Positions 10,599 through 19,536 of a DNA stretch of 64,000 nucleotides are shown piece by piece. The position numbers and the translations under genes were made by a program. This DNA comes from an uncultured Clostridia bacterium (GTDB lineage Bacteria; Bacillota; Clostridia; TANB77; CAG-508): positions 73,342 through 137,341 of the forward strand of contig CAKPHG010000001.1 in NCBI GenBank assembly GCA_934157035.1, in the 5' to 3' direction. Positions within the stretch are counted from its first letter, which is position 1; every line of letters starts with the position of its first letter. The notes under the pieces are model-generated. The model saw only the letters and a program-made list of their open reading frames with translations, did not search any database and was not told where the DNA came from.

Positions 10599-12008
10599 CT
10601 AGTGTTCTCCTTTTAAATACCACATATGTTCAGAAACTATTTTTACATCAATCATTTTTCCTATTAAACTTTTATCGCCTTCAAAAACAACAACTTTATT
10701 TGAGTCTGTTCTACCTGTTAACATTTCTTCATTATTTTTGCTTGTTCCTTCAACAAATATTTTTTGCACTGTTCCTATATATTTTTTATTATTTTCAGCT
10801 ATTTGACTTTCTACTAGAGCTTTTAGCTTGTTGAAATTTTTATGTTTTATTTCTTCTGGTATTTGATCTTCCATCTTATCTGCTGGTGTTCCAACTCTTC
10901 TTGAATATATAAACATAAATACTTGTTCAAATTTTACTTTCCTTACAACATCTAGTGTATCTTCAAATTCTTCTGTTGTTTCTCCTGGAAATCCAACTAT
11001 TATATCTGTTGTAAATCTCACATTTGGTATTTTATCTCTCATTTTTTCTACTAAACTTAAGTATTGTTCTTTAGTATATTTTCTGTTCATTCTTCTTAAT
11101 ACTTCAGTACTTCCAGATTGAAGAGGTAAATGTACTAATTTGCAAACTTTATCGCAATCTCTTATTGCTTCTATTACATCATCTGTAAAATCCTTTGGAT
11201 GTGGTGAAATAAAGCGTATTCTATCTATTCCATCTATTTTATTTACTGCTCTTAAAAGTGTTGCAAATGAATTAACTCCCTCGTATTCTTCAAACTCAAT
11301 TTCTTTTTCGCGTTCTACTCTTAAGTATGAATTAACATTTTGTCCTAAAAGTGTTACTTCTTTATATCCTTGTTTTGCTAAATCTCTAATTTCTTCTATT
11401 ATATCTTTTGGATTTCTACTTCTTTCTCTTCCTCTTACATACGGAACTATACAATAAGTACAAAAATTATTGCACCCATTCATAATTGTAACCGATGCTG
11501 AAACCTTGTCATTTCTAGAAATAGGAAGTCCTTCTATAACTTCACCATCTATATCTAATATATCTCTTATTTTTCTATTTTCTTCTAGTACTTTATATAA
11601 ATCTTCTGGAAATTTATGAAGTGTATGAGTTCCAAATATTATATCTACATAAGGATAACTTTCCTTTAGTTTTTTTATAATATGTTCTTCTTGCATCATG
11701 CATCCACCAATTGCAATTATTGTGCCTTTTTCTTCTTTTTGCTTTTTTACTTCTCCAACTTTTCCAAAAAGTTTTTCTTCTGCATTTTCGCGAACACAGC
11801 AAGTATTGAATAAAACTAAGTCTGCTTCTTTCATATTTTCTGTTTTTGTATAATTCATTTTTTCAAGCATACCACATAATTTTTCAGAATCATTCTCGTT
11901 TAACTGACATCCCATTGTCATTATATAATATTTTAAATTTTTATCTTCATTTATTTTTTGTATTTTATCTATATATTCTAGCTCTTTTTCTATATTTACT
12001 GTTTTCAT
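10599..12008 (-). CDS. miaB: tRNA-2-methylthio-N6-dimethylallyladenosine synthase MiaB (radical SAM methylthiotransferase). Start placed at the internal Met with SD AAGGAG (track ORF extends to 12080).
   Basis: MTMGCQLNENDSE (UPF0004 N-domain). Radical-SAM CNNFCTYC. TRAM C-terminus. aaggagaaatacattaATG at 12008. Gene order miaB-mutS is conserved in Firmicutes. Confidence 0.9.
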   Translation of the reverse strand: MKTVNIEKELEYIDKIQKINEDKNLKYYIMTMGCQLNENDSEKLCGMLEKMNYTKTENMKEADLVLFNTCCVRENAEEKLFGKVGEVKKQKEEKGTIIAIGGCMMQEEHIIKKLKESYPYVDIIFGTHTLHKFPEDLYKVLEENRKIRDILDIDGEVIEGLPISRNDKVSASVTIMNGCNNFCTYCIVPYVRGRERSRNPKDIIEEIRDLAKQGYKEVTLLGQNVNSYLRVEREKEIEFEEYEGVNSFATLLRAVNKIDGIDRIRFISPHPKDFTDDVIEAIRDCDKVCKLVHLPLQSGSTEVLRRMNRKYTKEQYLSLVEKMRDKIPNVRFTTDIIVGFPGETTEEFEDTLDVVRKVKFEQVFMFIYSRRVGTPADKMEDQIPEEIKHKNFNKLKALVESQIAENNKKYIGTVQKIFVEGTSKNNEEMLTGRTDSNKVVVFEGDKSLIGKMIDVKIVSEHMWYLKGEH

Positions 12009-12143
12009 TAATGTATTTCTCCTTATATATTTTTCTTGCATATTATATATTATTTTCTCTATTTTTTCAACATTTTTCACTTTTATTCTCTTTTAGAATT
12101 ATTAAAATAAATTTTTTAATAATTCTATTTACTAACCACCATA

Positions 12144-12170
12144 AAAAGCCGACAAAATGTCGGCTTTTTA
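12144..12170. terminator. Intrinsic terminator (GCCGACA-aaa-TGTCGGC with flanking A/T runs, bidirectional)
   Basis: aaaaagccgacaaaatgtcggcttttta sits between the 12177..12533 gene and miaB. Confidence 0.75.
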
Positions 12171-12176
12171 TAGTAA

Positions 12177-12533
12177 TCATTTTTTTAAGTTATTAAACTT
12201 ATTTTCCATACTTTCAACTCTTGACTTTAAAGAGGTCAGCTTAAATACTTTATCTCTTGCTCTTTTAATTTCAAAGTTGACTTTTTTAAGTTTAATACTT
12301 TTTACAGATTCATTAAAAACATTTCTTGATGTATCGAAGAATACTTTTTTTCTGCGTTCACAACAATTATCTATAATTCTAAACATATAATATATTTCTA
12401 TGTTTATGTCTCTTTTCAGACTTTCTATGTCTTCTAAATAAATGTCGCAATTTTGCTTAGCTTCTTCTACATCTTTTTTTAAGAGTAATTCATACCGCTT
12501 AACTTTTCTTCGAATCTCTGTTATTTCTTTCAT
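12177..12533 (-). CDS. Hypothetical coiled-coil protein, 118 aa (start at the Met with SD AAGGGGG; track ORF extends to 12581)
   Basis: MKEITEIRRKVKRYELLLKKD...IIDNCCERRKK. Helical/charged composition. The position upstream of miaB is reminiscent of B. subtilis ymcA(ricA)-ymcB, but no sequence match is claimed. Confidence 0.4.
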   Translation of the reverse strand: MKEITEIRRKVKRYELLLKKDVEEAKQNCDIYLEDIESLKRDINIEIYYMFRIIDNCCERRKKVFFDTSRNVFNESVKSIKLKKVNFEIKRARDKVFKLTSLKSRVESMENKFNNLKK

Positions 12534-13170: not shown

Positions 13171-13292
13171 TCTAATTCTCCTACTTTTTTCTACTATATA
13201 ATTATACTATATTTTTTTATTTTGTCAACTAGTTATATTTTCTATTTTTTAGTAAATACTATATAAAAATAATTTTTTATAGGAGTTTATTT

Positions 13293-13964
13293 ATGAAAAA
13301 AAATATTATTTGGATTATTTTAATAATTATTGTATTACTTATTATAGGATTTTTCCTTTTTAAAAATTCTAACAATAAAATTTATAATAATAATAATTTA
13401 AATTTATCTAATTTTAATGACTTAGAAACAACAGATACTAATATATTAAAAGCTGAAAATAGAGTTTCTAATATTATAAAAAATAAAAATGAAATTTTAA
13501 ATAATATTTCAAACGAAAAAGAACTTTCTTCTTATTTTACTATTATAAAAGATAATTCGGAAGGAAGATTAACTAATATAAATATTACTTGTAATATTTT
13601 AAATAATACTATTATTAAATCAAATGAAACATTTTCCTTCAATAATATAGTTGGAAAACCAACGGAAGAAAGAGGCTATAAAGAAGCTAATGTAATTATT
13701 AATAACAAAACAGAAAAAGGTATTGGCGGTGGAAATTGTCAAGTAAGTAGTACTATTTATAATGCTGTTCTAGCCGTTCCAAATTTAACTGTTATAGAAA
13801 GACATGAACATGGCATGGATGTGAGTTATGTTCCAGACGGAAAAGATGCTGCTGTTTCTTATGGTTCTTTAGATTTAAAATTCAAAAACGATACTGGAAG
13901 AGATTTACTTCTTAATGTAACTACAGATAATTCTTCAATATTGGCAAAAATAACAGAGTTATAA
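13293..13964 (+). CDS. VanW-family protein (membrane-anchored)
   Basis: N-terminal TM. VanW-domain motifs GIGGGNCQVSSTIYNA and ERHEHGMDVSYVPDGKDAAVSYG. Confidence 0.7.
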   Translation: MKKNIIWIILIIIVLLIIGFFLFKNSNNKIYNNNNLNLSNFNDLETTDTNILKAENRVSNIIKNKNEILNNISNEKELSSYFTIIKDNSEGRLTNINITCNILNNTIIKSNETFSFNNIVGKPTEERGYKEANVIINNKTEKGIGGGNCQVSSTIYNAVLAVPNLTVIERHEHGMDVSYVPDGKDAAVSYGSLDLKFKNDTGRDLLLNVTTDNSSILAKITEL

Positions 13965-14066: not shown

Positions 14067-15278
14067 ATGCGTAGATTTATATCTTGTTTTGTTTTATTTA
14101 TATTATTAAGTTTTGCAATTTCTCCTTTTTCGCTTTCATATACTGATTCCTCTTTTGTTTGGTCAGAAGATCTTTCTTCTATTGAGACTTCTTCAAATGT
14201 TTCTTCTCTAGAATTAGCTTCAGAAAGTGCAATTTTAATTGAGCAATTTTCAGGAAAAGTTTTATATGAGAAAAATTCCCATGACCAATTAAGACCTGCA
14301 TCTGTTACAAAAATTATGAGTATTCTGCTTATTATGGAATCTTTAGACAGTGGCAAAATTTCTTTAACAGATAAAGTTCCTTGTTCTGAAAAGGCTTCTA
14401 AAATGGGTGGTTCTCAAATTTGGTTAGACCCTCGAGAAACTCTTACTGTTGATGAAATGTTAAGAGCTATATGTATAGCTTCTGCAAATGACTGTACTGT
14501 TGCAATGGCAGAGTATTTGACTGGTTCAGAAGAAGCTTTTGTTCAAAAAATGAATGAAAAAGCTAAAGAACTAGGAATGAATGATACTACTTTTAAGAAT
14601 TGTCATGGTCTAGATGTAGATGGACATTTAACTTCTAGTAATGATATTGCTCTTATGTCTAAAGAGCTTTTAATAAAACACCCAAGTGTTACAAAATATA
14701 CAACTACTTGGATGGATACATTAAGAGATGGTAAATCGCAATTAGTAAATACAAATAAATTAATTAGAAATTATAAAGGAATTACTGGGCTTAAAACAGG
14801 TTCTACAAGTCTTGCTTTATATAATTTATCTGCTAGTGCTACAAGAGACGATTTATCTTTAATTGCTGTTATTATGCGAGCTCCAACTCCAAAAGACAGG
14901 TTTGCTGATGCTCAGAAATTACTAGATTATGGTTTTAATAATTACTCATATACTAAGTTTGCAAATAAAGGTGATATATTAAAATCTGTTGATGTTACAA
15001 AAGGAGTTAAAACGTCTTTAAATATTGTTTATGAAACTGATAGTGGTTGTTTATTGGAAAAAGGCTCAAATAAAAATATAGAGCAAATTATAAATATTCC
15101 AGATAATGTTTTTGCTCCTATTCAGAAAGGACAAAAAATAGGTGACATTTTTTATACTTTAAATAATGAAATTCTATGCTCTGTCTCTCTTATTGCTGAT
15201 GAAGATATAAAGAAAATTAATTTAAGTTCTATGTTTGAGAAAATATTTTTTAATTGGTTTAGACTTTTAAGATCATAA
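14067..15278 (+). CDS. D-alanyl-D-alanine carboxypeptidase (peptidase S11, PBP5/DacF-type) with signal peptide
   Basis: Signal peptide. SxxK (SVTK). SxN (SANDCT). KTG (KTGST). PBP5 C-terminal domain. Confidence 0.85.
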   Translation: MRRFISCFVLFILLSFAISPFSLSYTDSSFVWSEDLSSIETSSNVSSLELASESAILIEQFSGKVLYEKNSHDQLRPASVTKIMSILLIMESLDSGKISLTDKVPCSEKASKMGGSQIWLDPRETLTVDEMLRAICIASANDCTVAMAEYLTGSEEAFVQKMNEKAKELGMNDTTFKNCHGLDVDGHLTSSNDIALMSKELLIKHPSVTKYTTTWMDTLRDGKSQLVNTNKLIRNYKGITGLKTGSTSLALYNLSASATRDDLSLIAVIMRAPTPKDRFADAQKLLDYGFNNYSYTKFANKGDILKSVDVTKGVKTSLNIVYETDSGCLLEKGSNKNIEQIINIPDNVFAPIQKGQKIGDIFYTLNNEILCSVSLIADEDIKKINLSSMFEKIFFNWFRLLRS

Positions 15279-15279
15279 A

Positions 15280-15328
15280 AAACGCTTTCAAATGTTAAGT
15301 TTATTTCTAACATTTGAAAGCATTTTTT
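15280..15328. terminator. Bidirectional intrinsic terminator (14-bp stem GCTTTCAAATGTTA/TAACATTTGAAAGC)
   Basis: aaaaacgctttcaaatgttaagtttatttctaacatttgaaagcatttttt lies between the convergent dac gene and the 15349..15792 gene. Confidence 0.75.
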
Positions 15329-15348
15329 ATTTTTATACTAAAGAGTTT

Positions 15349-15792
15349 CTATTCTTCACCATATTTTTCGTCATATTCTTGTTGAGCTTGAACAGCCTCT
15401 AAAAATGCTACTTTTGCTTCTTGTGCTGCTAATAATGCTAATTTTACAGATTCCTCTGCATATTCTAATTCGTTGTCTATATATTTTGATAATTTTTCTT
15501 TATCATGAGCTTCTTTTCTCTCTTGAATATTTTCTTTCGCTACTTTAAAGTTCATTTGAGCTTTTAAAAGTTCACTTGAAATTTTTCCTTTTCCTCTTTC
15601 AGATGCTATTCTACATTGTTCTTTTGCTGCTTCTAATTCACTTTTTGCATCTTCCATTTTTTTAGATAAAGTATCTTTTGCTTCCATTCCAACAATAATT
15701 GCTGTATCTGTTCCATCTTTTATTTTTGAATTTAATTCTTTTAATTTTGAATTAAATTCATCCATTTTTTCTTTTCTTTCTTCTTTTGTCAT
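15349..15792 (-). CDS. Hypothetical alpha-helical/coiled-coil protein (147 aa)
   Basis: ORF with SD AGGAGGTAATTTATTATG. K/E-rich helical sequence. No confident family. Confidence 0.45.
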   Translation of the reverse strand: MTKEERKEKMDEFNSKLKELNSKIKDGTDTAIIVGMEAKDTLSKKMEDAKSELEAAKEQCRIASERGKGKISSELLKAQMNFKVAKENIQERKEAHDKEKLSKYIDNELEYAEESVKLALLAAQEAKVAFLEAVQAQQEYDEKYGEE

Positions 15793-15919
15793 AATAAATT
15801 ACCTCCTAATATTTATTTTTCTATTTTATATCATATAATTATGAACACTTTATGAATTTATTATTATTATTTACTTTTTTTATAATTTTTTATATTTAAT
15901 TTTATTAATTTGATAAAAA

Positions 15920-15962
15920 AGAAGTTATAAATGTATTTTTTCATTTATAACTTCTTTTTGGG
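15920..15962 (-). terminator. Intrinsic terminator after the 15967..16581 gene (AAGAAGTTATAAATG/CATTTATAACTTCTT)
   Basis: aaaaagaagttataaatgtattttttcatttataacttctttttg. Confidence 0.6.
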
Positions 15963-15966
15963 TTTT

Positions 15967-16581
15967 CTAGTTCCAAATTACTGGTCTTGGGTTACCACTT
16001 TTAAAACTTATTAAAACTGAATTTGTATTTAAATATTGAAATTTACATGGTACAAGGTAAGTCGAACTTACATTAGCATTATTACCAACTATACTTTTAG
16101 TTTCATCAAACCCTAATCCTTTTTTTTGTTCACTACCTGCTTTTAACTTTTCTACATATTTAGTATTCATATTTTTATACAAATTGCTTATTTCTGTAGA
16201 AGTAGAATTTGAAACTTCTTCATATATACTAGATGTCCAATAGTATGTTTGTCCACGACCTGGCCATGTTCTTACTCCACTATTATTACCAGTAGTATAT
16301 GTAGAACTATTATTTGTTGCTCCTCCATATCCACTTAAACCTAAATAAGCAGCTGCCGCCCAGTCAGCATTTAATGTTAAATGTGGATCTAAACTGTTTT
16401 TACTTAAAGTAGAAGTTGGATTTCTTAGGTCATAACATACTTGATATGCATCACTTACACTCGTTTGATATGCGCTTGCTCCATCTTTAATTTCCATAGC
16501 CGCATTTACTTTTCCATTTAAACATACTATAAAAATTAACGCTAATAAAAATATTATTAATAATTTAACTTTTTTCTTCAT
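15967..16581 (-). CDS. Secreted protein of unknown function (204 aa, signal peptide, Ser/Thr/Asn-rich), apparently co-transcribed downstream of the 640-aa pilin-like repeat protein
   Basis: MKKKVKLLIIFLLALIFIVCLNGKVNA signal peptide. No terminator in the 83-nt gap to the upstream gene. SD GGAGAAtaaaATG. Confidence 0.55.
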   Translation of the reverse strand: MKKKVKLLIIFLLALIFIVCLNGKVNAAMEIKDGASAYQTSVSDAYQVCYDLRNPTSTLSKNSLDPHLTLNADWAAAAYLGLSGYGGATNNSSTYTTGNNSGVRTWPGRGQTYYWTSSIYEEVSNSTSTEISNLYKNMNTKYVEKLKAGSEQKKGLGFDETKSIVGNNANVSSTYLVPCKFQYLNTNSVLISFKSGNPRPVIWN

Positions 16582-16664
16582 TTTATTCTCCTTTATTATA
16601 CACTTTCATCATCTATCATAACTTTTGTTAAATCTGCTTTATAGCATAACTCATCTCTTGATTT

Positions 16665-18587
16665 TTACTCTGTTACTAATTTGTTACTAGACTCATATTT
16701 GCTCATCCATATTCCTTTTAAATTCTTACTTCCGTCTTCTCCACTTGGTGTAAATGCTGGATGCACTATAAAGTTCTCTGGTAAAGTATCTCCATACAAA
16801 TCTTTTTCCATTGGCTTATTGTCTAAATCTATAAATATAATTTCTATTTCTTTAGTTGCTTCATTTATACTATAAGCATATCTAGGAATCCATACCCACC
16901 ATGCTTCTAATCCATTTCCTGTTGTTTTTATATTTGCCCATACTTTATTTGGATAAGAATACCATGTATTATCATTATTTATTGTATCTAAATTTGCATC
17001 TTTTAGTAATACTTCACTTGTAAATGTATTTGTTGATTTATCATAAAGTTCTATATATGTATAGTTTTGGTCAAATCCTGTCATATCTGGTGCATAACAT
17101 TTGTAAGCCATTTGTGACTGGTCTGTAACTGTTACGTTACTAGTTTCATATTTACTCATCCATATTCCCTTTAAATTCTTACTTCCGTCTTCTCCGCTTG
17201 GTGTAAATGCTGGATGTACTATAAAATTAGAAGGGAGTGTATCTCCATATTTTTCTTTTTCAAATGGTTTATTGTTCAAATCTATAAATATAACTTCTAC
17301 TTCTTTAGAAGCTTCATTTACACAATAAGCATATCTAGGAACCCATACCCACCATGCCTCTAATCCAGAACCTGTAGTTTTTACATTTGCCCATACTTTA
17401 TCTTTGTATGAATACCATTCATTATTATTGTTTATTGTATCTAAGTTCGCATCTCTTAATAATACTTGACTTGTAAAAGTTTCTGATGTTTTATCATATA
17501 ATTCTATATATGTATTATTTTTATTAAATCCTGTTAAATCAGGTGCATAGCAAATATTTCCTCTTCCTTCTTGTTTTGTTACATCCACATTACTAGACTC
17601 ATATTTACTTACCCATATTCCTTGTAAGTTTTTACTTCCATCTTCTCCACTTGGTACAAACGCTGGATGAAGTTCATACCCTTCTGGAAGTTCTGTATAC
17701 TTTGTTCCTATTGGCTTATTATTTAGATCTACAAATATAACATCCATATTTTTATCTTCTAATTTGTAAGCATATCTAGGAACCCATACCCACCATGCTT
17801 CTAATCCATTTCCTGTTGTTTTTATATTTGCCCATATTTTATTTTTATAACTATCTAATACATATATTTTATCTTCTTCTAATATTTTACTTTGTTTTCC
17901 ATTTTGAATATACTCTGTTACTGGAATTTCTTTTAAGTCTGTTAAATCATCTTCATTGTAATATTCCATATATGTAGAATATTTATTAAATCCATTCATA
18001 TTTGGACTATACCAACCAATATCTTCATATATTGTTATCTTTGGTTCATCTTCTATTTCTGGACTCTCTTTTTGTGTTTCTTGTTGACCTTCTCCATTTA
18101 ATGTATGATGCCTTTTTCCAAAATATTTTTCTCCTTTTACATCATAAAGTTGTATTGTATCTGTATTTATTATATATTCTCTTTTTGTTTTAATTTTATT
18201 TCTGTCTATATAATACAAGTTTAAAGTTGTTATATCATCTGTACCACTTATTGACTGGATTTCTGCCTTTAAAGTTTCTTGTAAGCCATCTATTTCTGAT
18301 GATTGGAGTTTATTTGCAACTGGTAAATTATCTACATTTGAAGCAAGTATTTCTGCCAATATACTATCTGCTTCTTTATTAAGTTTGTATGTTTGAACAG
18401 CTTCTTCTACTTGTCTAAATCTACTTTTAAAACTTGCTTCTTTTGCTTTTTCTACTATTCCTTCTTGTCCAAATAATATATTTATACTTACCCCTGCTAA
18501 AATTATTAATATAATTATTGTTATTACTAGAGCTATAAGGGTTATACCTTTTTTATCTTTTAAAATTCTATCACCTATTTTTTTCAT
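16665..18587 (-). CDS. Large prepilin-signal-like (class III signal, lacking Glu5) protein with 3.5 tandem ~150-aa repeats. Minor-pilin/pseudopilin-like or membrane-anchored surface protein.
   Basis: N-terminus MKKIGDRILKDKKG|ITLIALVITIIILIILAGVSI resembles the KG/FTLIE prepilin motif but has Ala at +5. C-terminal repeats carry KxWANxKTTGxGLEAWWVWVPRYAY...HPAFxPSGEDGSKNLxGIWxSKYExSN...CYAPDxTGF...YIELYDK...WYSY. SD GAGGAATCAAAATG. Confidence 0.6.
   Translation of the reverse strand: MKKIGDRILKDKKGITLIALVITIIILIILAGVSINILFGQEGIVEKAKEASFKSRFRQVEEAVQTYKLNKEADSILAEILASNVDNLPVANKLQSSEIDGLQETLKAEIQSISGTDDITTLNLYYIDRNKIKTKREYIINTDTIQLYDVKGEKYFGKRHHTLNGEGQQETQKESPEIEDEPKITIYEDIGWYSPNMNGFNKYSTYMEYYNEDDLTDLKEIPVTEYIQNGKQSKILEEDKIYVLDSYKNKIWANIKTTGNGLEAWWVWVPRYAYKLEDKNMDVIFVDLNNKPIGTKYTELPEGYELHPAFVPSGEDGSKNLQGIWVSKYESSNVDVTKQEGRGNICYAPDLTGFNKNNTYIELYDKTSETFTSQVLLRDANLDTINNNNEWYSYKDKVWANVKTTGSGLEAWWVWVPRYAYCVNEASKEVEVIFIDLNNKPFEKEKYGDTLPSNFIVHPAFTPSGEDGSKNLKGIWMSKYETSNVTVTDQSQMAYKCYAPDMTGFDQNYTYIELYDKSTNTFTSEVLLKDANLDTINNDNTWYSYPNKVWANIKTTGNGLEAWWVWIPRYAYSINEATKEIEIIFIDLDNKPMEKDLYGDTLPENFIVHPAFTPSGEDGSKNLKGIWMSKYESSNKLVTE
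16668..17990. repeat. Intragenic tandem DNA repeats (~450 bp x ~3) encoding the protein repeats of the 16665..18587 gene
   Basis: Near-identical stretches begin at ~16690, ~17150 and ~17600 (e.g. catatt(t/c)gctcatccatattcc(t/c)tttaaattcttacttccgtcttctcc(a/g)cttggtgtaaatgctggatg). Confidence 0.7.
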
Positions 18588-18762
18588 TTTGATTCCTCTT
18601 ATGTTTTTCTCTTTTATTCAGTAAAATTTTATCATTACGTTATTTATTTGTCAACGAATATATATCTTTTTATAAGATAAAAAAAAATATACCAAATTTG
18701 CATTAGTTTACATATTATGTTATAATATAGTTAGTAACTAATACTTTTTATGGAGGTACTTT

Positions 18763-18927
18763 ATGGACATAGAAACTTATATTTATACATTGGGCAGTAG
18801 ACGGAATGAAAAAAAATCCTCTAGAAGAAGAGGAAATTTTCCAACTTCATCCCCTTATGTAGCTCCAGCCAAACTTGAATTGATGAATTTTAATAAAAAA
18901 TCATTTCAAGTTTCAAAAACTGAATAG
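18763..18927 (+). CDS. Small basic protein (54 aa) with its own promoter-like region, strong SD and terminator. Unknown function.
   Basis: GGAGGtactttATG. MDIETYIYTLGSRRNEKKSSRRRGNFPTSSPYVAPAKLELMNFNKKSFQVSKTE. Followed by terminator aaaacagagaaatatttctctgtttttt (18930..18960). Confidence 0.4.
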   Translation: MDIETYIYTLGSRRNEKKSSRRRGNFPTSSPYVAPAKLELMNFNKKSFQVSKTE

Positions 18928-18929
18928 TG

Positions 18930-18960
18930 AAAAAACAGAGAAATATTTCTCTGTTTTTTA
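18930..18960. terminator. Bidirectional intrinsic terminator (AACAGAGAAA/TTTCTCTGTT) between the small + ORF and ytfJ
   Basis: gtgaaaaaacagagaaatatttctctgttttttatttt. Confidence 0.7.
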
Positions 18961-18963
18961 TTT

Positions 18964-19536
18964 TTAATCTATATTTTTTGTTTCATTATTATCCATCATA
19001 TCTTCGTTATAATCTGAATTAAATTTTACAGTTCTATTCTTTTTAGGGTGTATCTTGTTTATATTTGGAATTGTAATTGTACCATTACTTTTGCCCTCTT
19101 CGTTTTTTTCTACTTCATATTCTTTATTACATAATTGTTTGCTTATTATTTCATTTGTTTTTTCTATTAAGTCTGGAACATAGTCTAATAGTCTATCTAC
19201 TGCTGAACTGTGTTCTATTGGTAAAATTTTTACATTGTTTTCTTGTACTACTAAAAAAGCCACTGGTGAAATACTTACTCCTGCTCCACTTCCTCCACCA
19301 AAAGGTAATTTGTATTGAATTTGTTCATCCTTATCCTTTCTTGTATATTCGTCTATTGTCTCACCTTTAAACTCACTTCCTCCTGAGGCAAATCCAAAAC
19401 CTACCTTTGAAATTGGAATTATAACTATATTGTTTGATGTCTCTATTGGTTCACCTATAATAGTATTTACATCTACCATATCTCTTATGCTATTCATTGC
19501 TGTAAGCATAAGTCCTTCTATTGGATGATCTGTCAT
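18964..19536 (-). CDS. ytfJ: Sporulation protein YtfJ/GerW family
   Basis: MTDHPIEGLMLTAMNSIRDMVDVNTIIGEPIETSNNIVIIPISKVGFGFASGGSEF...FGGGSGAGVSISPVAFLVV matches the YtfJ family consensus (MSEHPIQGLM...VSKVGFGFAAGGSEF). Confidence 0.8.
   Translation of the reverse strand: MTDHPIEGLMLTAMNSIRDMVDVNTIIGEPIETSNNIVIIPISKVGFGFASGGSEFKGETIDEYTRKDKDEQIQYKLPFGGGSGAGVSISPVAFLVVQENNVKILPIEHSSAVDRLLDYVPDLIEKTNEIISKQLCNKEYEVEKNEEGKSNGTITIPNINKIHPKKNRTVKFNSDYNEDMMDNNETKNID

Follow-up and report, generated by a model that had tools for sequence, protein, structure and literature searches.

A two-gene operon among housekeeping genes

We analysed a pair of adjacent genes in a 64-kb stretch of DNA from an uncultured Clostridia bacterium (64,000 nucleotides; the window), one for a large protein with a pilin-like N-terminus and tandem repeats, the other for a small secreted protein that we call the partner; together they probably specify a split adhesin carried on a pilin. 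An earlier interpretation made from the letters of the stretch alone (the sequence-only reading) had pointed out both open reading frames (ORFs), and its coordinates proved exact. The first gene (16665..18587, including the stop codon) encodes a modular pilin-like protein of 640 amino acids (aa) and the second (15967..16581) the 204-aa partner, already recognized in that reading as a signal-peptide protein; both are on the minus strand. The signal peptide of the partner (aa 1-27) is of the Sec type and ends in ...KVNA/AME (the slash marks the predicted cleavage site), and an AGGAG ribosome-binding site (16588..16592, minus strand) precedes the gene. The mature part of the partner would be the C-terminal half, with a C-type lectin (CLec) core, of the composite domain described below.

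The best promoter match of the region, of the sigma-70 type (18626..18654, minus strand; TTGACA, a 17-nucleotide (nt) spacer and a TG-extended TAAAAT, matching at 11 of 12 positions), lies directly 5' of the 640-aa ORF. We found no terminator in the 83-nt gap between the two genes, and terminators flank the pair, both as the sequence-only reading had proposed. On the 3' side, an 18-bp palindromic hairpin with A and T runs on its flanks (15916..15959, no strand assigned) forms a bidirectional terminator that closes the operon, and on the other side two hairpins (18817-18834 and 18930-18959) set the pair apart from the upstream ytfJ. Because there is a single promoter, no terminator inside, terminators on the flanks and a strong ribosome-binding site for the second gene, the pair is a two-gene operon with one promoter and one terminator.

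The neighbourhood is chromosomal housekeeping (mutS, miaB, vanW, dacB, ytfJ, scpA and recA), and the gene pair has a GC content (28.6%) close to the 26.7% of the window. An Rfam scan of 15200-19100 returned chance miRNA-like hairpin matches only. Just 3' of the operon terminator lies a gene (15349-15792, minus strand) for a highly charged, coiled-coil-like protein of 147 aa, with a weak, sub-threshold Pfam match to T7SS_signal (E 2e-4). A further hairpin between this gene and dacB (15275-15330) is probably a bidirectional terminator; its Rfam matches are among the chance ones.

The pilin-type N-terminus

The 640-aa protein begins with MKKIGDRILKDKKG/ITLIALVITIIILIILAGVSINILFG, followed by QEGIVEKAKEA. 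Its first 14 residues (MKKIGDRILKDKKG; 18546..18587, minus strand) form a short leader of mostly basic or polar residues, the last of which (-1) is Gly, as is characteristic of class III (prepilin-type) signals. About 21 hydrophobic residues follow the predicted cleavage site, within an alpha1-N segment (aa 15-39, ITLIALVITIIILIILAGVSINILF; 18471..18545, minus strand) that has Ala at +5 and is modelled as a helix; in the AlphaFold2 (AF2) model this helix spans aa 5-39. Next comes a pilin-like alpha/beta module with a linker (aa 40-188; 18024..18470, minus strand), modelled as a helix at 44-77 and then short beta-strands, with a predicted local distance difference test score (pLDDT) of about 90 over aa 50-160; a fold search gave no match. 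The N-terminus aligns in register with those of MshA, PilE1 and geopilin (KKG/ITLIALV versus KKG/FTLIELL), and a profile of the pilin module, run against the PDB, found weak in-register matches to pilin N-termini only (E 0.06-0.9).

The assignment is carried by related metagenome-assembled genomes (MAGs). Eight MAG loci (L055:7115-18920; also L067, L042, L031, L030, L029, L073 and L028) contain a conserved pilus operon of pilM-like and pilN/O-like genes, one to five tandem pilins, pilD, minor pilins, pilB, pilT and pilC. The tandem pilins, of about 130-170 aa, are placed between pilO and pilD; Pfam recognizes A24_N_bact (108 bits), T2SSE (344 and 157 bits) and T2SSF in these operons, and the Walker A motif of PilB is APTGEGKT. 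The operon pilins start with KG/ITL[IV]ALV[IV]TI[IV]VLLILAGV, which is the motif of the window protein. Because the same motif heads the pilins of pilus operons in all eight loci, we conclude that the 640-aa protein starts with a class III signal such as these bacteria use for pilins, as the sequence-only reading had suspected from the basic leader, the Gly and the hydrophobic helix. At one of the loci (L073) a gene for a fused pilin-CLec protein lies 3.6 kb upstream of the pilus operon, and in another relative (L018) a housekeeping locus includes an A24 peptidase.

Glu at position +5 is considered important for the docking of pilin subunits, tip subunits being the usual exception (PMC10191384), and the sequence-only reading had taken Ala at +5 as a mark of large minor pilins of the GspK/PilK type. 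This did not hold. In 117 related ORFs, a motif-biased sample since the pattern used to retrieve the loci required Gly or Ala at -1 and fixed Ala at +5 in at least one ORF per locus, position +5 is Ala in 112, Ser in 5 and Glu in none, major-pilin candidates included, and position -1 is Gly in 109 and Ala in 8. The operon pilins likewise have Ala or Ser (Asp in one minor pilin) instead of the near-universal Glu5, and no classical Glu5 pilin was found in 1.33 Mb of related loci. Ala5 thus appears to be general in this MAG group and not GspK-like.

Repeats and partner as halves of one domain

The repeats cover the C-terminal ~450 aa of the large protein, not 400 as first estimated. We delimited R1 at aa 190-340 (17568..18020), R2 at aa 344-491 (17115..17558) and R3 at aa 495-640 (16668..17105), all on the minus strand. 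By pairwise alignment, R2 and R3 are 77% identical in aa and 81.5% in nt; R1 is 50-51% identical in aa to either. The protein contains exactly three copies each of the motifs WVW[VI]PRYAY, GEDGSKNL and GIW.SKYE, TRF reports a tandem array at 16683-17669 (period 453 bp, 81% matches; the R2/R3 array), and the repeats share exact DNA runs of 26-53 nt within the window. The sequence-only reading had counted three nearly identical repeats and a degenerate half repeat, mirrored by DNA repeats of about 450 bp. The three full repeats and the DNA period stand, but closeness is confined to R2 and R3, in protein and DNA alike, and a search of the 640-aa ORF for the half repeat found none. What does exist is a vestige beyond the ORF: 22 in-frame codons past the TAA stop (within 16599-16667) correspond to the beginning of a fourth repeat (LCYKADLT; the vestige, KSRDELCYKADLTKVMIDDESV, at 16599..16664, minus strand), untranslated in the window. 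In a metagenomic allele that is 99% identical and 23 residues longer (P0001), the stop codon is CAA and the vestige is translated, its in-frame continuation KSRDELCYKADLTKV... being a fourth-repeat stub.

The 640-aa protein has more than 3377 database homologues, all from uncultured gut Clostridia (human, rabbit and chicken gut; CAG:440 and CAG:567) and all 'hypothetical' or unannotated. Among 96 full-length homologues, three repeats are the rule (81 proteins), with two in 9, four in 5 and one, in a protein that is probably truncated, in 1. From the identities, R2 and R3 appear to evolve in concert: within one protein they are on average 72% identical, R2-R2 and R2-R3 comparisons between proteins both give about 50%, and in 28 of 50 proteins the nearest relative of R2 is the protein's own R3. 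The comparison of copy number that the sequence-only reading had called for did reveal, within the family, alleles differing by exactly one repeat. One pair (P0111 and P0043) is 99.8% identical save for a clean 148-aa deletion of exactly one unit, and another (P0112 and P0070) is 98% identical save for a 152-aa deletion, again exactly one unit; in P0111 and P0112 the junction is in register, within the conserved motif WAN..NG/EAWWVW (the slash here marks the junction). These one-unit alleles may reflect real unequal recombination or collapsed short-read assemblies. Elsewhere the whole module has been duplicated, since two large-gene and partner modules (666+226 aa and 662+223 aa) stand in tandem upstream of rpoB/rpoC (L002:7158-12704).

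The hidden Markov model (HMM) of the partner also matches the C-terminal parts of single-chain proteins that have a pilin-like N-terminus and one repeat-like unit. We compared a profile of this single-chain domain with both window proteins by hhalign. The repeat matches its columns 9-128 (probability 99.85%, E 1e-30) and the partner its columns 149-353 (probability 98%, E 1.6e-13). The two matches are consecutive and do not overlap, and repeat and partner therefore look like two halves that make up a composite domain. In the alignment, the first residues of the mature partner (AMEIKDG...) pair with the strand directly C-terminal to the variable linker of the fused forms; therefore, the fission would have fallen in the linker.

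The distribution of the two halves is consistent with this. In the loci examined, three-repeat proteins have a separate, adjoining partner gene in 11 of 11 cases and a fused partner domain in none, and none of the 96 full-length homologues has a partner domain within it; in one-repeat proteins the partner half is fused in 16 of 25. The adjacency in all 11 holds across partner identities of 32-49% and differing chromosomal contexts. An exhaustive profile search found 719 representatives of the partner family, mostly stand-alone and of 200-250 aa. In four giant proteins (P0207, P0257, P0281 and P0284) every partner segment comes immediately after a repeat segment, with up to five such pairs. By these comparisons the two genes are a fission pair, not mere neighbours, and the repeat, left by the sequence-only reading as an unrecognized orphan, would be the N-terminal half of a composite domain of which its 'small secreted protein' is the C-terminal half. 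The giant proteins (4516 aa for P0207 and 2338 aa for P0257) have two to five tandem units of repeat half plus partner half, together with BNR, Big_12, CHB_HEX_C and Ig-like domains; their signal peptides are ordinary, without pilin N-termini.

The composite domain could be linked to a known fold. A profile of 14 composite units matched TaqVP in the PDB (5VF4, E 1.1e-5), with PvdO and SUMF2 as weaker matches behind it, and the alignment runs from HPAF..GxW, where the repeat half ends, through HLMxNxEWxAVA, in the partner half. TaqVP has the CLec fold of the formylglycine-generating enzyme (FGE) type; its CLec core extends from residue 112 (the HLM motif), and the preceding region wraps the core (PMC6328139). 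On this mapping the partner would contain a complete CLec core and the repeat, a beta-domain, would be a pre-CLec module. We had also considered a split inside the CLec core, which would imply strand complementation, and dropped it because the TaqVP core starts at the HLM motif, inside the partner. Pfam FGE-sulfatase (PF03781, cut-off 23.3 bits) is passed by one protein only, the giant P0257 (43.9 bits); the fused relatives remain below it (20.5-21 bits), and neither window protein matches. Taken at the level of profiles, the composite domain appears related to the FGE-type CLec fold, a general ligand-binding fold. A single Cys (C49) is conserved in the partner, with none in its C-terminal region, and the catalytic Cys pair of FGE is thus lacking; an enzymatic FGE role is unlikely.

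Variability within the partner family peaks at aa 111-140 and 161-190, and the C-terminal RPVIWN is nearly invariant. In CLec proteins diversified by diversity-generating retroelements (DGRs), the variable region (VR) sits before strand beta5 (PMC6328139). The peaks of the partner match this position, which we count as a hint of a binding role. We found signatures of DGRs in relatives. At one locus (L044) the last 152 nt of a fused pilin-CLec gene (11811-11962) are repeated 160 nt downstream (12122-12273), and all 17 mismatches (17/17) fall at adenines of the downstream copy; to judge by this pattern, it is a clear pair of VR and template repeat (TR) on a type IV pilin-like protein. The 13.3-kb locus contains no ORF for a reverse transcriptase (RT), and its contig ends 1 kb past the TR; its neighbourhood (dacB, vanW, miaB and mutS) resembles that of the window. 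At a second locus (L062) the partner gene, which stands alone and adjoins a three-repeat gene, shows a VR/TR-like pair that has decayed (13249-13377 and 13504-13638), with 18 of 25 differences at TR adenines and a 6-nt indel. No RT was found at this locus either, where rpsF-ssb-rpsR directly follow the pair, and the window holds no second copy (TR) of the 3' end of its partner gene. In DGR surveys pilin-type targets are just rare oddities; TaqVP-like targets have been reported in Bacteroides prophages, and pilus targets for type V pili.

A probable split adhesin on a pilin, and its rivals

Taken together, the evidence makes it probable that this two-gene operon encodes a lectin-like adhesin that is split and borne on a pilin. 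Modular pilins combine an N-terminal pilin module with one or more extra modules that are not specific to pilus biology (PMC8179133), and the 640-aa protein, which has this layout, would be one of them; the idea of a modular pilin or adhesin, put forward in the sequence-only reading, fits it. An ancestral single-chain pilin-CLec protein would have been split within the linker between the halves, the front half being triplicated and kept on the pilin and the CLec core gaining a signal peptide of its own. For cleavage, pilus display, docking, stoichiometry and ligand we infer the following course. Prepilin peptidase would remove the 14-residue leader, and the 640-aa protein would then stay anchored in the membrane or be displayed by type IV pilus machinery, with the pilus tip as the most likely site. 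The secreted CLec partner could attach, by non-covalent docking, to one, two or all three repeats and would act as the binding head, with its most variable surface just before the invariant C-terminal RPVIWN strand. A more specific version, which we put forward only tentatively and hold to be somewhat less likely than its opposite, is that the partner docks in trans on each of the three repeats, giving a trivalent, exchangeable head on a constant pilin stalk, in a pilus whose pilins all lack Glu5.

Several observations weigh against the split-adhesin reading. The first concern the N-terminus, which could be only a pilin-derived signal-anchor; the 640-aa protein would then be a type II membrane-anchored wall or surface protein, without PilD processing or a filament, and the repeats its stalk or binding modules. 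The protein lacks the Glu5 that normally drives pilin docking, and pilin models stay below their cut-offs (Pfam PF07963 N_methyl 13.7 versus 21.2 bits; NCBIfam GspG 22.2 versus 88.9 and ComGC 16.6 versus 75 bits). As the sequence-only reading had noted for assembly genes, the 64-kb window is devoid of pilus genes and of a prepilin peptidase, and copies of the module lie in assorted housekeeping surroundings rather than in pilus operons. This N-terminus also heads dozens of proteins whose C-terminal parts differ greatly, as is expected of a generic anchor. On the other hand, the motif is the same in register, and nearly the same in sequence, as that of pilins inside pilD-bearing operons; Gly or Ala stands at -1 in 117 of 117 ORFs (as the retrieval pattern required), with a short basic leader throughout; and known modular pilins are often encoded away from the machinery (PMC8179133). 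We therefore regard a mere signal-anchor as doubtful.

The second set of observations concerns the connection between the two proteins. The CLec assignment of the window partner is transitive, through the fused relatives, to whose profile hhalign links the partner at 98% probability; the partner alone has no match in Pfam and none in profile searches of PDB sequences. Neither has the repeat alone (profile search against PDB sequences included). Pfam, NCBIfam and PHROGs gave sub-threshold matches only for the two window proteins (DUF7683, gp37_C, N_methyl and GspG). Profile and structure analysis of the repeat, which the sequence-only reading had suggested as a check, yielded a compact beta-domain for each repeat in AF2 (R3 modelled alone, pLDDT 89.9, predicted template modelling score 0.82) and, through the profiles, the link to the front half of the CLec-type composite; Foldseek returned no match at E <0.001 for the full model against the PDB and BFVD or for the single-repeat model against the PDB, and hence no solved or viral structural neighbour.

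It is thus conceivable that the partner has been, since the fission, an independent, free secreted lectin-like protein, that the adjacency reflects common descent and co-regulation, and that the repeats have a role of their own, as a spacer or in binding another ligand. The partner has a whole CLec core as delimited in TaqVP and its own signal peptide, and the repeat folds confidently alone in AF2, so that docking is not needed for the folding of either. Moreover, three repeats face one partner gene, a 3:1 domain ratio and a mismatch in stoichiometry when compared with the 1:1 of all covalent versions. Independence would, however, have to accommodate the adjacency in 11 of 11 loci despite the divergence of the partners and their different contexts, the complementarity of the fused and split states, and the invariance, across all three repeats, of motif residues (W, P, R, Y, H, F, G, W and K) that the fused domains have as well. 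We consider an independent partner unlikely.

That the pair comes from a phage, as a receptor-binding (tail fibre) module, or is left over from a DGR cassette is highly improbable: TaqVP-like CLec proteins are typical targets of prophage DGRs, two relatives have VR/TR-like repeats and Pfam gives a weak gp37_C match (E 0.007), but the neighbourhood is housekeeping, the GC content is like that of the window, there are no PHROG matches, no BFVD structural matches and no TR copy in the window, and the N-terminus is a pilin signal, not a feature of virion proteins.

Type IV pili gain functions by the grafting of modules onto pilins, and this family, with its thousands of proteins in uncultured gut Clostridia, escapes surveys that rely on the N_methyl signature. 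If the split-adhesin reading is true, the family would be a major adhesin class of poorly known gut anaerobes, with a binding domain delivered as a separate secreted subunit and a pilus system in which no pilin has Glu5, the residue believed to drive the docking of subunits; the targeting of the binding domain by DGRs in relatives would establish a link, in Firmicutes, between adhesion by type IV pili and programmed hypervariation. If, in addition, the trivalent arrangement were true, fission would uncouple the variable, ligand-binding part, DGR-mutagenized in some relatives, from the pilin, and would create a two-component modular pilin, an arrangement that has not been described for type IV filaments. 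A text search of the literature returned no earlier description of the family or its N-terminal motif, including combinations of a pilin with a CLec/FGE domain and of a pilin with a DGR.

The closest known counterparts of the 640-aa protein are modular pilins such as PilB (with a vWA module) and PilC (with a lectin module) of Streptococcus sanguinis, also a monoderm, which have a class III signal, a small pilin module and grafted ligand-binding modules (PMC8179133, PMC9934059). A site at the pilus tip and a role in adhesion would be expected by analogy with this type, and extra modules in multiple copies are known (PMC8179133, PMC9934059). Unlike PilB and PilC, the window protein scores below threshold for IPR012902/N_methyl, has Ala for Glu5 and is encoded outside a pil locus; its grafted module is a front half-domain in three copies, the binding core being a separate secreted protein. 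The large minor pilins that lack Glu5 (GspK and the capping subunits PilK/PilX) are similar in being large pilin-like proteins, and make a tip location plausible (PMC10191384). However, loss of Glu5 is general in these MAGs, so it does not mark a cap subunit here, and the window protein has neither a GspK-like alpha-domain insertion nor GspI/J-like neighbours.

As for the binding part, the likeness to TaqVP (5VF4) and TvpA lies in the profile match of the composite domain, in the variability before an invariant C-terminal strand and in one fused relative that is a DGR target (PMC6328139). TaqVP, in contrast to the window pair, is a single-chain, monomeric, prophage-encoded protein without a pilin part (PMC6328139), and the window partner has no VR/TR pair, no recognizable GxYDxxGNxWEW motif and no direct PDB or Pfam match. 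The DGR-diversified tips of Bacteroides type V pili also bring CLec-type domains, some of them hypervariable, onto pilus subunits of gut bacteria (bioRxiv 10.1101/2024.11.15.621889); the window system differs in its type IV-like pilus, in its phylum, in being split rather than a covalent single chain, and in having no DGR at the locus. Modular pilins and the CLec fold are, thus, known kinds, and what is new is the split into two genes, the triplicated pre-CLec module and the absence of Glu5 from all pilins of this group.

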